Shown here piece by piece: positions 30,534 to 35,277 of a DNA stretch of 64,000 nt; position 1 is the first letter of the stretch, and each line of letters opens with the position of its first letter. The DNA comes from Phenylobacterium sp. GTDB lineage: Bacteria; Pseudomonadota; Alphaproteobacteria; Caulobacterales; Caulobacteraceae. Below the pieces are notes generated by a model. It ran no database searches. It saw nothing but the letters and a program-made list of their open reading frames with translations, and had not been told where the DNA came from. The stretch covers positions 13,590-77,589 of the forward strand of contig NZ_JAUYAW010000052.1 in assembly GCF_030693405.1 (NCBI RefSeq), written 5' to 3'. The position numbers and the translations under genes are program-made.

Positions 30534-32036
30534 TTGGCGCTCAGCGCGCGACTCGAGATCCGTCAGGGGCAGGGGCTGGTCATCACCCCCCAGCTGCAGC
30601 AGGCCATCAAGCTGCTGCAGCTGTCGAACCTTGAGCTGGAGGCCTATGTCGAGGGCGAGCTTGAGCGGAACCCTCTGCTGGCCCGGGACGAGGGGGAGGC
30701 AGAGCCCGCCCCGCAGATCGCCGACGGCGCTGGCGAGGCCCGCGCCGAGGCGGCCCTGGACGAGGTGGCCGCCGGTTCGGCCCAGAGCGACCTGGACGCC
30801 GCCCATGACGACGTCTCGCCTGGTGAGCGGGCCACCGGCGACGGGAGCGAGGCTGGTGAAGCCGGCGGCGCCATCGACTGGTCCAAGGCCGGCAAGGGCA
30901 GAACCTTCGAAGGCGACGGGGATGGCCTTGACGGCCTGGCCGCCCATGAAAAGAGCCTCGCCGAATATCTGACGGACCAGGCCGCCCTGCTGGGCTTCAC
31001 GCCGCCGCAGGCTGCGGTCGCCGCGGTGCTCATCGACGGAGTGGACGAGGGCGGCTATCTGCGCCTCGACCTGACCGAGACCACCGAGCGCCTGGGCTGC
31101 GAGCTCGCCCTGGTCGAGGGAGTCCTCACCCGTCTGCAGGGCCTGGAGCCCACCGGCGTCTTTGCGCGCGATGTCGCCGAATGCCTTCGGCTTCAACTGG
31201 TCGAGCGTGATCGCTGCGACCCTGCCATGTCGGCGCTGCTGGACAATCTCGACCTGCTGGCCCGCCGGGACATGGCGGGTCTGAAGCGCGCCTGCGGCGT
31301 CGATGACGAGGACCTGCGCGACATGCTCGCCGAGCTGCGCGCCCTGACGCCGCGGCCGGGCGCGGCCTTCGGCGGCGAGCCGAGCCAGCCGGTCTCGCCC
31401 GATGTCTTCGTGCGCGAGGGCCCGGGGGGCCTGTGGCTGGTGGAGCTGAACAGCGACACTCTGCCGCGCCTGCTGGTGGACCAGCGCTATCACGCCAAGG
31501 TTTCCGGCGGCGCGCGGTCGGACCAGGAAAAGACCTTCGTCGCCGACTGTCTGGCCACGGCCAACTGGCTGGTCCGCAGCCTCGACCAGCGGGCCAAGAC
31601 CATCCTCAAGGTGTCCAGCGAGATCGTCCGCCAGCAGGACGGCTTCCTGGCCTATGGGGTGGAGCACCTGCGGCCCCTGAACCTGAAGACCGTCGCCGAG
31701 GCCATCGGCATGCACGAATCCACGGTCAGCCGGGTGACGTCGAACAAGTATATCGCCACCCCCCGGGGCCTGTTCGAGCTGAAGTTCTTCTTCACCTCCT
31801 CGATCGCCTCGTCCTCCGGCGGCGAGGCCCATTCGGCCGAGAGCGTGCGCCATAAGATCCGCCAGCTCATCGACGCCGAAGCCCAGGGCGCCGGCGTCCA
31901 TTCCGACGACCAGATCGTCGAAATCCTCAAGGCCGGCGGCGTCGATATCGCCCGCCGGACGGTCGCCAAGTACCGGGAAGCCATGCGGATTCCCTCCTCG
32001 GTGGAGCGCCGGCGGGCGATGAAGGAAGCGGTCTAG
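30534..32036 (+). CDS. rpoN: RNA polymerase sigma-54 factor (TTG start)
   Basis: ITPQLQQAIKLLQL, MHESTVSRV and the RpoN box ARRTVAKYRE. Confidence 0.97.
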   Translation: MALSARLEIRQGQGLVITPQLQQAIKLLQLSNLELEAYVEGELERNPLLARDEGEAEPAPQIADGAGEARAEAALDEVAAGSAQSDLDAAHDDVSPGERATGDGSEAGEAGGAIDWSKAGKGRTFEGDGDGLDGLAAHEKSLAEYLTDQAALLGFTPPQAAVAAVLIDGVDEGGYLRLDLTETTERLGCELALVEGVLTRLQGLEPTGVFARDVAECLRLQLVERDRCDPAMSALLDNLDLLARRDMAGLKRACGVDDEDLRDMLAELRALTPRPGAAFGGEPSQPVSPDVFVREGPGGLWLVELNSDTLPRLLVDQRYHAKVSGGARSDQEKTFVADCLATANWLVRSLDQRAKTILKVSSEIVRQQDGFLAYGVEHLRPLNLKTVAEAIGMHESTVSRVTSNKYIATPRGLFELKFFFTSSIASSSGGEAHSAESVRHKIRQLIDAEAQGAGVHSDDQIVEILKAGGVDIARRTVAKYREAMRIPSSVERRRAMKEAV

Positions 32037-32092
32037 AGCCTGAGCGCGTTTTGATCCGATAACCGGTTCCCACTTATCGGAACGCGCTCTAG
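32033..32092. repeat. Short palindromic intergenic element of the RIME/CIR/BRU-RS type with CTAGAGC ends
   Basis: CTAGAGC..GAGCGCGTT..TCCGATAA CCGGTTCCCAC TTATCGGA ACGCGCTC TAG. The ends contain the TAG stops of both rpoN and asd. Confidence 0.7.
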
Positions 32093-33171
32093 AGCCGCCC
32101 CGACGACCTCAGAGCTTCAGCGATCTGCACGGCGTTGAGCGCCGCCCCCTTCAGCAGCTGATCGCCCGCCACGAACAGGGACAGGCTGCGGCCGGACGGG
32201 TCGGACAGATCGGTACGGATGCGGCCCACCAGCACATCATCCTGGCCCTGCGCTTCGGCGGGCATGGGGAAGTGGTTGGCGGCCTGGTCGTCCACCACCC
32301 GGACCCCGTCTGCGGCCGAGAGCCATGCCCGGGCCTCGGCCACGCTCACCGGCTCGGCGAACCGTACGGTCAGGGCCATGGCGTGGGCCCGCAGGGTCGG
32401 CACCCGGATACAGGTGAAGCTGGCCGGCAGGTCGGCGGCGCCCAGCAGGCGGCGCAGCTCGGCCATCACCTTCAGTTCCTCGCCATTATATCCCGTCTCC
32501 GGATCGATCCCGGCGTCGTGGCTGAACAGGTTGAAGGCGTAGGGGTGGGCGAGCACCTGGGGCGCATAGGCCTGGCCGGCCAGGGCTGCTGCGGTGGCGT
32601 CCCGCAGTTCGGCCATGGCCGCAGCCCCGGCGCCCGAGGCGGCCTGATAGGTGGAGCCGATCAGCCGGACGATCAGCCGTCTCGCGTGCAGCGGCGCCAG
32701 CACCACCGCGGCGATGGCCGCCACGCAATTGGGATTGGCCACCAGCCGGCCGTCCATCTCGCCGAGCCGCCAGCCATTGACCTCCGGCGTCACCAGGGGG
32801 GTGTCGGGGTCCATGCGGAAGGCCGAGGAATTGTCCACCACCCAGGCCCCGGCGGCGACCGCAAGCGGACCATAGCGGCGCGACAGGGTGGCGCCGGCGG
32901 AGAAGAAGGCGAGGTCGACGCCGTCGAAACTGGCTTCATCCAGGGCCTGGACGGTCACCGGCGCCCCCCGAAAGCTCAGGACCGTTCCTGCCGAACGGGG
33001 CGAGGCCAGCAGCCGCAGCGCCTTTACGGGAAAGTCCCGGCGCTCCAGGCAGCCGATCAGCTCGGCGCCCACGGCGCCAGTGGCGCCGACAATGGCCACG
33101 GTCAGGGGACGGGCCATGTCGGTCTTGGCGGGCGCCGGGCGGACCAGGGACGTTGCGAGGGACTGCGGCAT
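32089..33171 (-). CDS. asd: Aspartate-semialdehyde dehydrogenase
   Basis: AIVGATGAVG, VDNSSAFRM, ANPNC, STYQAASGAG and GDQLLKGAALNAVQIAE motifs; GGAGG SD upstream of ATG 33171. Confidence 0.93.
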   Translation of the reverse strand: MPQSLATSLVRPAPAKTDMARPLTVAIVGATGAVGAELIGCLERRDFPVKALRLLASPRSAGTVLSFRGAPVTVQALDEASFDGVDLAFFSAGATLSRRYGPLAVAAGAWVVDNSSAFRMDPDTPLVTPEVNGWRLGEMDGRLVANPNCVAAIAAVVLAPLHARRLIVRLIGSTYQAASGAGAAAMAELRDATAAALAGQAYAPQVLAHPYAFNLFSHDAGIDPETGYNGEELKVMAELRRLLGAADLPASFTCIRVPTLRAHAMALTVRFAEPVSVAEARAWLSAADGVRVVDDQAANHFPMPAEAQGQDDVLVGRIRTDLSDPSGRSLSLFVAGDQLLKGAALNAVQIAEALRSSGRL

Positions 33172-33174
33172 GGG

Positions 33175-33285
33175 AGCCTCCGGGGTCTGGCCGGAGGGAG
33201 GCTGGCTTTCCTTGGCCGACCCCATCCTTCCGGCGGGGTCAAGCAGGGATCGTCAGTCGGCTGCGGGCAGCCACGACCAGACCCC
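33175..33285 (-). promoter_or_regulatory. Putative translational attenuator RNA switch for asd
   Basis: Alternating GGGGUC/GACCCC segments at 33280-85, 33235-40, 33218-23 and 33182-87; anti-SD AGCCUCC (33197-203) pairs with SD GGAGGCU (33175-81). Confidence 0.7.
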
Positions 33286-33342
33286 TGCGCCCGCAAGCGC
33301 AGTGGTTTTAATAATCATGGTCATGGCGGCATGATGCAGCAT
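33253..33342 (-). CDS. Putative leader peptide MLHHAAMTMIIKTTALAGAGVWSWLPAAD (29 aa; alternative start 33324)
   Basis: Translated by hand. Eight consecutive Met/Thr/Ile/Lys codons directly upstream of asd, using AT-rich codons ATT ATT AAA ACC ACT. Confidence 0.75.
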   Translation of the reverse strand: MLHHAAMTMIIKTTALAGAGVWSWLPAAD

Positions 33343-33348
33343 GCGCCC

Positions 33349-33377
33349 CCGATAGGCCCAGACGGCGGCGCTGTAAA
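33349..33377 (-). promoter_or_regulatory. Candidate sigma70 promoter for the asd leader
   Basis: TTTACA-N17-TATCGG; the A of ATG 33342 is the 7th base after the -10 hexamer, consistent with a leaderless start. Confidence 0.45.
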
Positions 33378-33434
33378 GCGTCTGGCCCCATGGCTGATTG
33401 CGCCGCTTGAGCCGCGCGCCCATACCCGGGACCC

Positions 33435-34058
33435 ATGACGACGGGCATTCCTGACCAGGAACGGCGCATGAGCCTCTCGGCGATGCTCCGGGATCTCTGT
33501 GACCTGTCCCATGAGACCGAGGACTTCGGGGCCCTCATCGGCCGCTTTGGCCGCCGGGCGTTCGGGGCGCTGCTGTTCCTGTTCGCCGCGCCCAATCTGC
33601 TGCCGCTGCCGCCGGGATCTTCCACCTTCCTGGGCGCGCCCCTGCTGCTTTTTGCGCCCCAGCTGGCGCTCGGGGTGACCAGTCCCTGGATGCCGGCTGG
33701 GTTGCGGGCTCAACGGCTGGACATGGGCGTCCTGCGCGGCGCATTCCTGAAACTGGTCCCGAGGGTTGAACAGGTGGAGCGGGTCTCCAGCGCCCGGCTG
33801 ACCTTCCTGTTCGGCCCGGTCGGCGATCGCCTCATCGGCGTCTGCTGCACGGTCCTGGCCTTCGTGCTGATGCTGCCCCTGCCGTTGGGCAATCTGCTGC
33901 CGGCCACGGCGATCAGCCTGTTCGCTGTGGCCCTGCTCCAGCGGGACGGAGTTTTCGCCCTGGCGGGCTATGTGGCTACAGCGGTGAGCCTGGGGGTCCT
34001 GGCGCTCGCCGCCGGGGTTATCCACAGGCTTTTCATCGTGGCCATGAGCAGTCTTTGA
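33435..34058 (+). CDS. Exopolysaccharide synthesis ExoD-family membrane protein
   Basis: GRRAFGALLFLFAAPNLLP.PPGSST, PLPLGNLLPA and RDG motifs. Confidence 0.85.
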   Translation: MTTGIPDQERRMSLSAMLRDLCDLSHETEDFGALIGRFGRRAFGALLFLFAAPNLLPLPPGSSTFLGAPLLLFAPQLALGVTSPWMPAGLRAQRLDMGVLRGAFLKLVPRVEQVERVSSARLTFLFGPVGDRLIGVCCTVLAFVLMLPLPLGNLLPATAISLFAVALLQRDGVFALAGYVATAVSLGVLALAAGVIHRLFIVAMSSL

Positions 34059-34099
34059 CGCACTTGACACCAACCCGAGACAGGCGCGTTCTTGAACCT

Positions 34100-34735
34100 A
34101 TGCAAGTCCAAGTCACCGGCAAACACGTCGATGTCGGAGAGGCCCTGCGTCTGCGGGTCACCGACGAACTCACCAACAGCATTGGCAAATATATCGACCG
34201 CGCGGGCGGTGGGGCCGATGTTGTCGTCAGCCGCGAGGGCTACACCTTCAAGGTGGATTGCGCCCTGACCCTGGCCTCGGGGCAACAGCTCCAGAGCCAC
34301 GGCACCGGAACCGACGCCCATACGGCCTTCGATTCCGCCCTGCAGAAGATCGAGACCCGGGTCCGCCGCTATAAGCGTCGGCTGAAGGATCACCATCAGC
34401 AGGCGCTCGCCAAACAGGCCGAGACCGCCTCCTATTTCGTGCTTCGCACGCCCGAGGGCGAGGATGAGCCCGATTGGGACGATGATGCCCATCAGGGCTC
34501 TGAGGGCGCGCCGGCGGCCATGGTCATCGCCGAGACCGAGCGTCCGATCCGTGAAATGACGGTTTCCATGGCGGTGCTTGAGCTGGATATGACCGGCGCT
34601 CAAACAATCGTGTTCAGGAACGCCGCGCATGGCGGTTTGTCCGTGGTATATCGCCGGCCCGATGGGAATATCGGCTGGATTGATCCCGAGCGTACGAGGC
34701 CGGTGAACGGTACGGGCTCCAACGGCGCCGCCTGA
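34100..34735 (+). CDS. hpf: Ribosome hibernation promoting factor (long HPF/RaiA)
   Basis: MQVQVTGKHVDVGEAL, KIETRVRRYKRRLKDHH and VVYRRPDGNIGWIDP. Confidence 0.93.
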   Translation: MQVQVTGKHVDVGEALRLRVTDELTNSIGKYIDRAGGGADVVVSREGYTFKVDCALTLASGQQLQSHGTGTDAHTAFDSALQKIETRVRRYKRRLKDHHQQALAKQAETASYFVLRTPEGEDEPDWDDDAHQGSEGAPAAMVIAETERPIREMTVSMAVLELDMTGAQTIVFRNAAHGGLSVVYRRPDGNIGWIDPERTRPVNGTGSNGAA

Positions 34736-34812
34736 CAGCGGCCCGTCGACCCCCGACCCTCGCCGAGACCCGTGCGGCCTCGGACCCGTAGAACAGGCCT
34801 TCCGAAGCAAGC

Positions 34813-35277
34813 ATGCAGATCGGCGATATTCTGGATCGCGGCGCCATTGCGCTGCGTGTGAGCGCGACCGACAAGCGCCAGATCCTGGCCCACCTGGCCG
34901 AGCTGGCGGCGCGCAACTTCGGGCTGGAAGCGAGCACGGTTCTCGACGCGCTGAGCGAGCGTGAGCAGGCCGGCTCCACCGGGATCGGCCACGGCGTCGC
35001 CGTGCCCCATGCCCGGATCGAGGGTCTGGACCGGATTCGCGGGGTGTTTCTGCGGGTTGAACAGCCGGTGGCGTTCGAATCCATCGACGACCAGCCCGCC
35101 GACCTCATCTTCGCCCTGCTGGCCCCGCCGGAAGCGGGAACCGAGCATCTTCGCGCCCTGGCGCGGGTCTCGCGCATGCTGCGCAACGCCGACCTGCGTG
35201 AACATCTCCGCCAGGCCCGCACGCCGGACGCCCTGCACGCCCTGCTAGTTCAGGAGTCCGCGCCCTCCGCGGCCTGA
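34813..35277 (+). CDS. ptsN: PTS IIA-like nitrogen regulatory protein
   Basis: REQAGSTGIGHGVAVPHA and HLRALARVSRML motifs; follows hpf. Confidence 0.92.
   Translation: MQIGDILDRGAIALRVSATDKRQILAHLAELAARNFGLEASTVLDALSEREQAGSTGIGHGVAVPHARIEGLDRIRGVFLRVEQPVAFESIDDQPADLIFALLAPPEAGTEHLRALARVSRMLRNADLREHLRQARTPDALHALLVQESAPSAA

Follow-up and report, generated by a model that had tools for sequence, protein, structure and literature searches.

Ribosome-mediated attenuation is textbook knowledge from the trpL, thrL and hisL leaders, and aspartate-semialdehyde dehydrogenase (Asd) stands where the routes to lysine/diaminopimelate, threonine, methionine and isoleucine branch. The asd gene of Escherichia coli was reportedly found by Boy and Patte, in 1972, to be under multivalent repression by Lys, Thr and Met, to our knowledge with no leader peptide involved, and Vitreschak et al. 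are said to have predicted, in 2004, a thrA leader with Thr, Ile and Met codons in Pasteurellales. Integration of several end products at Asd is an old question, to which a leader found upstream of an asd gene of Phenylobacterium sp. (Alphaproteobacteria; Caulobacteraceae) suggests a simple cis-acting answer. The locus lies on a stretch of 64,000 nucleotides (assembly GCF_030693405.1, contig NZ_JAUYAW010000052.1, positions 13,590 to 77,589 of the forward strand), the whole of which is called the window here. Sequence comparison indicates that the leader is a real, conserved regulatory element, and we put at about 60% the probability that it is a ribosome-mediated leader-peptide attenuator controlling a second, accessory asd gene (asd2).

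Two sets of published leaders bear on this locus. In Sinorhizobium meliloti, SEP5 is a 39-aa small open reading frame (sORF; SM2011 chromosome 3620220-3620339) located upstream of a gene annotated as 'aspartate dehydrogenase'; its translation was detected by ribosome profiling (Ribo-seq) and Western blot, and the authors, who suggest that it is a leader peptide, called it conserved only in Sinorhizobium and described neither an RNA switch nor a mechanism (Hadjeras et al. 2023, PMC10117765). In Actinobacteria, leader peptides with 'sequestor / anti-sequestor' hairpins were predicted on Trp, Cys and branched-chain genes, whereas the authors reported none on genes for Thr, Lys or Met (Seliverstov et al. 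2005, PMC1262725). With the exception of SEP5, our search of the full-text literature gave no described asd leader peptide. An earlier note on this DNA, made from the sequence alone, had proposed a translational attenuator here and had not known of one described for an alphaproteobacterial asd; this holds for the mechanism, for which we found nothing in the literature, but SEP5 had already been suggested as a leader peptide (PMC10117765). Searches of Rfam with cmscan, at E up to 10 in the window region (which gave noise only) and at E up to 0.1 at six related loci, revealed no leader family, including Thr_leader RF00506, and the leader open reading frame (ORF) matched none of the leader-peptide models in Pfam and NCBIfam. 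The family is missing from these three databases and is therefore missed by genome annotation.

The leader element and its asd gene

The features of the locus in the window are as follows (SD, Shine-Dalgarno sequence; MFE, minimum free energy).

33372-33377, minus strand: -35 box TTTACA of the putative leader promoter
33349-33354, minus strand: -10 box TATCGG of the same promoter, with a 17-nt spacer from the -35 box and 6 nt from the leader ATG
33253-33342, minus strand: leader ORF of 29 codons plus TGA, MLHHAAMTMIIKTTALAGAGVWSWLPAAD, the TGA at 33255-33253
33301-33324, minus strand: codon run ATG ACC ATG ATT ATT AAA ACC ACT (MTMIIKTT), wholly in the 5' arm of the leader hairpin
33270-33327, minus strand: leader hairpin of the MFE fold, with 5' arm 33327-33296 (including the codon run) and 3' arm 33291-33270
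33285-33277, minus strand: segment 1, GGGGUC(UGG) = GGGGUCUGG, inside the 3' arm of the leader hairpin
33240-33235, minus strand: segment 2, GACCCC, 5' arm of the post-stop hairpin
33223-33218, minus strand: segment 3, GGGGUC, 3' arm of the post-stop hairpin
33218-33240, minus strand: post-stop hairpin GACCCCGCCGGAAGGAUGGGGUC (segments 2 and 3), -14.6 kcal/mol, followed by GGCCAAGGAAAG without a U-tract
33182-33192, minus strand: segment 4, GGCCAGACCCC, reaching across the loop of the SD helix and the ends of both its arms
33190-33182, minus strand: (CCA)GACCCC = CCAGACCCC, partner of segment 1 within the SD helix
33175-33203, minus strand: SD-sequestering helix, CCUCCGG (33197-33191) with CCGGAGG (33183-33177), -11.5 kcal/mol
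33203-33197 with 33181-33175, minus strand: alternative register of the SD helix, AGCCUCC with GGAGGCU
33181-33177, minus strand: SD of asd, GGAGG
32089-33171, minus strand: asd2, aspartate-semialdehyde dehydrogenase of 360 aa, with its probable ATG at 33171; the second asd copy, with the leader

The leader ORF, the codon run, the four segments and the asd ATG all lie on the minus strand where the earlier note had placed them, and the letters of the promoter that it had read as TTTACA-N17-TATCGG are as it gave them. Its pairing of the asd SD with AGCCUCC was right as to sequestration, which is seen in both registers, but not as to the register, the MFE helix being the shifted CCUCCGG:CCGGAGG. 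A 56-aa ORF beginning at ATG 33423 was rejected, as the conserved promoter falls inside its extension and the orthologues begin at the ATG equivalent to 33342.

The leader element was found upstream of asd at 37 loci from at least 13 alphaproteobacterial families, i.e. at 36 loci beside the window, with an open ORF of 24-30 codons at the same place and with the leader ATG 160-216 nt (167-185 nt in most loci) from the asd ATG. Among the relatives of the source genome, all 19 of the asd2 orthologues, whose protein identities range from 100% down to 43%, have a 24-29-codon ORF rich in T, I, K and M about 110-135 nt upstream of asd, with cores such as MRRSTIKSAIKTTMPAG…, MRAFATMIITRKTTRSCGA… and MSRLTIKAITRKTTRCGGA…. 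The leader ORF is also present in Brevundimonas intermedia (locus L032; L, G and C numbers are our handles for loci, genomes and contigs) and in one uncultured alphaproteobacterium, these being the two alphaproteobacterial loci among the matches listed in a contig scan whose list was filled by actinobacterial asd. A covariance model, R1, built from 12 leader sequences with the window's subgroup deliberately excluded, recovered the leader of the window at its exact coordinates (19.7 bits, E = 9e-4). In 401 genomes spread over the class, R1 gave matches in 28, and every match having a Thr/Lys-rich ORF was upstream of asd; the search with this model contributed 16 further leader loci from about 11 other families, again all upstream of asd. 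The earlier note had envisaged that orthologues might lack the M/T/I/K run and the alternating stems, and the opposite was found, at 37 loci.

These comparisons bear directly on the possibility that an ORF and hairpins arising by chance in GC-rich intergenic DNA have been taken for a regulatory element. Such DNA does fold strongly, and the region as a whole has a z-score of only -2.6, as this explanation would have it; it is refuted by the recurrence of the element at 37 loci in many families, by the fixed promoter distance and the fixed spacing to asd, and by compensatory changes in the helices (see below), so that we consider its probability to be practically nil.

The product of asd2 exceeded the cut-offs of NCBIfam PRK14874 (377 bits) and TIGR01296 (347 bits) and contains the Pfam domains Semialdhyde_dh and Semialdhyde_dhC. 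Its start is likely ATG 33171, behind GGAGG. The internal Met at 33117, 18 codons on, was tried as a start and rejected; it has no SD and is replaced by Val (GTA) in orthologue L002, which is 97% identical, a lack of conservation that favours ATG 33171. The earlier note had not noticed that this gene is a second copy. Another asd, 40% identical and without a leader, is present on a different contig (C10) of the source genome, and the canonical type was found in all 41 related genomes, with the window's type in some of them only. In each of the 20 leader-bearing genomes that were checked there are two full-length asd genes and no more, only one of which is preceded by the leader; one of these genomes (G423) also has two asd fragments, on contigs that are very short.

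In a maximum-likelihood tree, the leader-linked asd genes form two well-supported clades. Clade I, which includes the gene of the window, has the leader in 27 of 27 members; clade II, which groups with actinobacterial-type asd (100/98), has it in 10 of 11. An sORF with a T/K run was found upstream of none of the canonical alphaproteobacterial asd genes (11 loci examined) and none of the actinobacterial ones (78 loci examined). At locus L017 (G034, same order), which belongs to clade II, the region upstream of the asd gene at 1501 is without a leader ORF and has kept the promoter-like sequence TTTACT-N17-TTAAAG, which may represent loss of the attenuator.

Putative sensing codons, promoter and helices

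Together, M, T, I and K account for 14% of the codons in the genes of the window, in which AAA makes up 7% of Lys codons, ATT 5% of Ile codons and ACT 3% of Thr codons. Since these four residues are scarce and ATT ATT AAA and ACT are rare there, the MTMIIKTT run is far from random. Codon statistics over residues 2-15 of 35 distinct leader peptides gave T 30%, K 14%, I 10% and M 5%, i.e. 59% for the four against the 14% background, with Thr and Lys each about 6-fold over background. Lys and two or more Thr are found in all 35 leaders, Ile in 27 and an internal Met in 18; AAA-ACN-ACC is nearly invariant, and codon choice favours AAA over AAG (49 vs 21) and ATT over ATC (29 vs 18). The earlier note's suggestion that all four amino acids are sensed thus fits the lineage of the window, where Met, Thr, Ile and Lys codons are all present, but does not extend to the family, in which Thr and Lys are universal. 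Judged from the codons, the family-wide signal is Thr and Lys, usually Ile and often Met. The rare AAA, ATT and ACT codons should, by analogy, give a sharper response, an effect that rare CUA codons have in the leu leader of E. coli.

The conserved residues may also be looked upon from the side of the peptide, the ORF then encoding a functional small protein, or being a by-product of a structured (metabolite- or protein-binding) RNA, so that the codons would not be a starvation signal. The peptide core ITRKTTR.GGA is conserved, which is readable as selection at the peptide level, and in S. meliloti the peptide encoded by trpL, a leaderless sORF, has its own function (PMC7968998, PMC10117765); for a structured RNA, the conserved Arg codons reflect RNA pairing, in that ACCCG arms pair with CGGGU. 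Across subgroups, however, it is the composition (Thr/Lys/Ile/Met) and the codon choice (AAA, ATT) that are conserved and not the order of residues, and the C-terminal halves of the leader differ freely. In addition, the residues named are end products of the pathway of the downstream gene, related leaders have Thr only before thrS and His before hisS, and neither an Rfam riboswitch nor a protein family was matched. We therefore regard a small protein or a structured RNA as very improbable explanations of the element.

The promoter noted in the window is conserved in the family. In an alignment of 21 sequences, T12, T13 and C15 of the -35 box are invariant and TTTACA is nearly so; over the 37 loci, a TT[TG][AC]C motif starts at -38 to -35 from the leader ATG in 33, or in 34 if one at -42 is counted, and the -10 equivalents CTAGAG, TATCGG or TATATC stand at the same distance in the orthologues. 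A generic sigma-70 scan of the region called no promoter, missing this one because TATCGG is without the final T, and the promoter claim therefore rests on conservation. The conserved -35/-10 spacing leads to a predicted start at the leader AUG, and transcription probably begins at, or within about 2 nt of, the A of this AUG, giving a leaderless leader mRNA; nothing resembling an SD precedes the leader ATG at 26 of the 37 loci.

In the MFE fold of the window, the codon run pairs with the region of segment 1 in the leader hairpin, a pairing that is absent from the earlier note. Because the run is the 5' arm of this hairpin, a ribosome parked on it would actively release segment 1, beyond leaving it uncovered. 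A plain MAFFT alignment of 21 leaders, when folded with RNAalifold, showed almost no structure, because the leader subgroups were out of register, and was replaced by an alignment of the 37 sequences guided by a covariance model, from which the covariation counts were made. In the leader and post-stop hairpins, 86% of cells were paired, compared with 38-50% when the partners were slid by one to three columns, changes on both sides were seen in 15 of 21 pairs, and the covariation score was reached by none of 500 shuffles. Helices homologous to the leader hairpin comprise 14 pairs, 13 of which have changed on both sides, and the post-stop helix is kept at all 37 loci, with 90% of cells paired.

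The alternative pairings are described here by the arms of the two hairpins, numbered along the mRNA as distinct from the segments of the window, 2:3 being the leader 3' arm with the 5' arm of the next hairpin, and 4:5 the 3' arm of that hairpin with the anti-SD arm. The 2:3 pairing held in 85% of cells, compared with 38-52% in slid alignments; the strong conservation of both segments leaves it with little covariation. Two members have coordinated sets of compensatory changes: L015 has GGGAC / GUCCC / GGGAC / UCCC in four successive segments in place of the usual GGGGC / GCCCC / GGGGC / CCCC, and in L033 the hairpin 3' arm has changed to GGACGGGG and its downstream partner to CCCCGUCU.

Towards its 3' end, the leader ORF contains a UGCGCGCG-like motif (alignment columns about 92-100; about 33275-33262 in the window) that is kept in most members, whatever the sequences of the downstream segments, and that in several folds pairs with the first leader codons. 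It is possible, as judged from these folds, that such pairing would sequester the 5'-terminal AUG once the leader is fully transcribed, leaving one ribosome per transcript.

Proposed translational relay and possible termination

From the conserved leader ORF, the promoter, the helices and the 4:5 complementarity in 37 of 37 loci, all of which support the stalling attenuator put forward in the earlier note, the following course of events may be envisaged. Transcription would begin at or beside the leader AUG, giving a leaderless leader mRNA, in which the eight Met/Thr/Ile/Lys codons, several of them rare, would form the 5' arm of the leader hairpin, with GGGGUCUGG in its 3' arm. With the four amino acids plentiful, the pioneer ribosome would clear the run and terminate at 33255-33253, and the leader hairpin would close behind it; the GACCCC...GGGGUC hairpin would fold after the stop codon and the asd SD would be locked in CCUCCGG:CCGGAGG, so that little Asd2 would be made and the untranslated mRNA would possibly be exposed to Rho or decay. 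When charged Thr, Lys, Ile or Met tRNA is scarce, we infer that the ribosome would stall on the run and hold the leader hairpin open. The freed GGGGUCUGG could then pair directly with CCAGACCCC in the SD helix or, alternatively, with GACCCC, in which case GGGGUCGGCC would be released to pair with GGCCAGACCCC. By either route the SD helix would be broken and asd2 translated, and translation would also shield the mRNA from Rho and decay.

Several observations on the folded RNA agree with an output of this kind. In each of the 37 asd leaders, the MFE fold pairs the SD with a segment upstream of it, and the best partner of the hairpin 3' arm overlaps the 5' arm of the SD helix, the 4:5 complementarity having a median z-score of -2.1 against dinucleotide shuffles. 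In the window, the pairing GGGGUCUGG : CCAGACCCC has 9 bp and -17.9 kcal/mol and that of GGGGUCGGCC (segment 3 plus 4 nt) with GGCCAGACCCC has -19.0 kcal/mol, and both of these segment 4 pairings compete with the SD helix CCUCCGG:CCGGAGG (-11.5 kcal/mol). We also moved a 28-nt ribosome footprint along each leader, with folds taken at equilibrium although the process is surely kinetic. The SD unpaired probability of the window was 0.31-0.35 with the ribosome on the run, 0.04 once it was past codon 17 and 0.06 in free RNA; in most orthologues the profile over ribosome positions was flat, because a 4-bp SD core stays paired. The free energy for opening the ribosome-binding site (RBS) was used in its place, giving a modest but position-specific signal that was minimal with the A site -5 to +2 codons from the last Lys codon in 27 of the 37 leaders. 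Folding of the RNA, which the earlier note had proposed as a check, thus places the SD in a helix in the default fold, as it had predicted, whereas the predicted opening by a stalled ribosome is modest.

The sequence after the post-stop hairpin bears on how the sensor is read out. As the earlier note had said, it has no U-tract: in the window there is no U in the 12 nt downstream and no minus-strand terminator was called. The asd leader thus fails the classical transcription-attenuator class on one defining feature, the U-tract terminator. Among the 37 loci, the 8 nt after the hairpin contain two U or fewer in 22 and at least five in three. These counts are central to the main rival explanation, that the sensor is the same while its output is premature transcription termination, with the SD helix secondary; the GACCCC...GGGGUC hairpin would then act as a terminator without a U-tract, or Rho would act between the hairpin and asd, where the RNA is C-rich and untranslated. 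The run in arm 1, the stop before hairpin 3:4 and the complementarity of segment 2 to 3 give the leader the layout of a classical attenuator, and the post-hairpin spacer is C-rich and G-poor in many members. Genuine U-tracts follow the homologous hairpin in L033, L120 and L131 and in related thrS leaders, and those of the three asd loci place termination within the repertoire of the family, so that it may also take place here, e.g. through Rho. The small equilibrium effect predicted for the RBS is also as a termination model would have it. Set against this are the lack of U residues in the window and in the 22 members already mentioned, and the fact that the sister thrS element does use U-tract terminators, one genome (G256) having both types, a thrS Thr leader with a clear U-tract and an asd leader without one; ordinary terminators are therefore used where needed, and the asd leaders are mostly without them. 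In addition, termination alone would give no function to the complementarity that all 37 loci have kept between the anti-SD arm and the hairpin 3' arm. We consider termination as the output to be unlikely, though a serious competitor. The translational relay is the best-supported output, but it is not established.

The reading of the element as a ribosome-mediated attenuator of asd2 with a translational output has to be set against a number of points that weigh on the other side. On the input side, some family members lack Met or Ile codons, and the -10 box is weak and was missed by a standard scan. As to the helices, the alignment used for covariation was fitted to the structure of the model, which inflates the pairing figures given above, and the alternative helices 2:3 and 4:5 are backed by conserved complementarity more than by covariation, the z-score of 4:5 being below -2 in only 22 of the 37 sequences. 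On the output side, the easing of RBS opening by a ribosome on the run is modest (1-4 kcal/mol), the mean effect being about 1.3 kcal/mol, with 1-7 kcal/mol per sequence and almost none in some members; the SD unpaired probability hardly changes in L005, L008, L009, L021 and L032; a 4-7-bp core of the SD helix persists in the 'stalled' folds of many members; and L033, L120 and L131 have a U-tract after the hairpin. The attenuator reading at the probability given above takes these points into account, and the direction of regulation and the amino acids that would matter in vivo follow from it as predictions.

Related leaders and known systems

R1 also matched leaders of a second kind, with Thr as the only sensing residue, e.g. 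MSQVRATTTTTTTTRLGGP and MLMMLQALNTTTTTRSGGP, which have the same TR.GG scaffold (loci L125, 963-1092; L127, 1501-1628 on the minus strand of the locus; L139; and L140). In these, the homologous hairpin is followed by UUUUU, i.e. by genuine U-tract terminators, and the downstream gene encodes an N-terminally truncated threonyl-tRNA synthetase (ThrRS) that begins MDDHDHR… and consists only of the class II core and the anticodon-binding domain. No Rfam family matched these Thr-only thrS leaders. The source genome itself contains a His leader of the same scaffold, MTFALRHHGHHHHPISCGIGRGCAA (L144, 1501-1625; contig C14, 53293-53417, plus strand), upstream of hisS, the gene for histidyl-tRNA synthetase, which starts at L144 1755. 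A TATAGG -10-like box precedes this leader; after it come a GAGCCCCCGC…GGACGGGGCUC hairpin, which lacks a U-tract, and then a CCCCGUCCGUC segment. A weak R1 match in the same genome (L146, 1501-1621; contig C84, 41564-41684) contains a 27-codon ORF, MVRFAMTSAATNCIPLAGRGAGCVRDT, with no obvious amino-acid run, followed by a terminator-like hairpin GCCCCGCC…GGGGCUUGUUCUUUG, and lies upstream of a 194-aa gene beginning MPFLLPLPETPRLETDRLVLRPL. The R1 search of the source genome that gave these two matches passed over the leader of the window at its first filter, so that further asd-type leaders may exist in this genome.

A wider idea may be put forward tentatively, at somewhat less than even odds: that a modular, class-wide scaffold, made up of a leaderless ORF, a hairpin carrying the sensing codons, a GCCCCGCC...GGGGC hairpin and an SD relay, has had its codons swapped according to the target (asd, thrS or hisS), and that, joined to two asd clades, it has largely given up termination for translational control, giving a starvation-inducible Asd isozyme beside a constitutive one.

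With regard to its genomic setting, the leader and asd2 lie in a part of the window (30534-35277) containing rpoN (30534-32036, plus strand), hpf (34055-34735, plus strand) and ptsN (34813-35277, plus strand), which usually form one cluster. Between rpoN and hpf are asd2 with its leader, on the minus strand, and a divergent exoD-family gene (33435-34058, plus strand; Pfam ExoD, E = 6e-48), and from this arrangement the two units look as if they had been inserted.

As its mechanism class is in the textbooks, the element is an extension of what is known and not a surprise. Its value lies in the breadth of an uncatalogued family, in the multi-amino-acid logic at a branch point, in the consistent pairing with a second asd and in an apparently translational switch. 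A single leader peptide, it is suggested, pools the charging of several tRNAs and passes the result to the RBS of an extra asd copy; this would add a case in which classical attenuator geometry drives translation instead of termination, apparently by conversion. Knowledge of the family would improve the annotation of small ORFs and 5' regions and explain the two asd genes of many genomes, and the element would supply a compact, tunable, amino-acid-responsive part for high-GC hosts.

Compared through its published peptide and DNA, SEP5 resembles the asd2 leader in that it, too, is an sORF from an alphaproteobacterium, located 5' of an aspartate-pathway dehydrogenase gene and rich in Thr (six codons) and Lys (three codons); it differs in being longer, in having an SD of its own (as read from a cloning primer) and in having its Thr/Lys cluster at the extreme 3' end (…ARKTTAKTTTKTV). 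The S. meliloti trpL leader (rnTrpL) is likewise an alphaproteobacterial leader peptide subject to ribosome-mediated attenuation, on a leaderless mRNA that starts from the AUG (PMC6614838, PMC10117765), as is predicted for asd2; unlike the asd2 leader, it senses Trp, has a real intrinsic terminator and controls trpE(G), with no SD-sequestration relay described. The actinobacterial sequestor elements share with the asd2 leader the proposal that leader translation decides SD sequestration, as well as a high-GC setting without U-tract terminators, but they belong to another phylum, have other sequences and stand before genes for other amino acids.

The thrL leader of E. coli and other enterobacteria (RF00506) is, like that of asd2, a short ORF naming end products of the aspartate pathway, with mixed codons leading to multivalent control, and there, too, a stalled ribosome selects between mutually exclusive helices, as is proposed here. 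However, the asd2 leader has no sequence or structure match to thrL, its target is asd and not thrA, and Lys codons are obligatory in it; it is also predicted to be leaderless, has a hairpin without a U-tract and would have an extra relay onto the SD of the structural gene. Finally, E. coli asd resembles asd2 in that a branch-point enzyme answers to several end products together, whereas in asd2 the integration would be brought about by a cis-acting leader, on a second copy of the gene.

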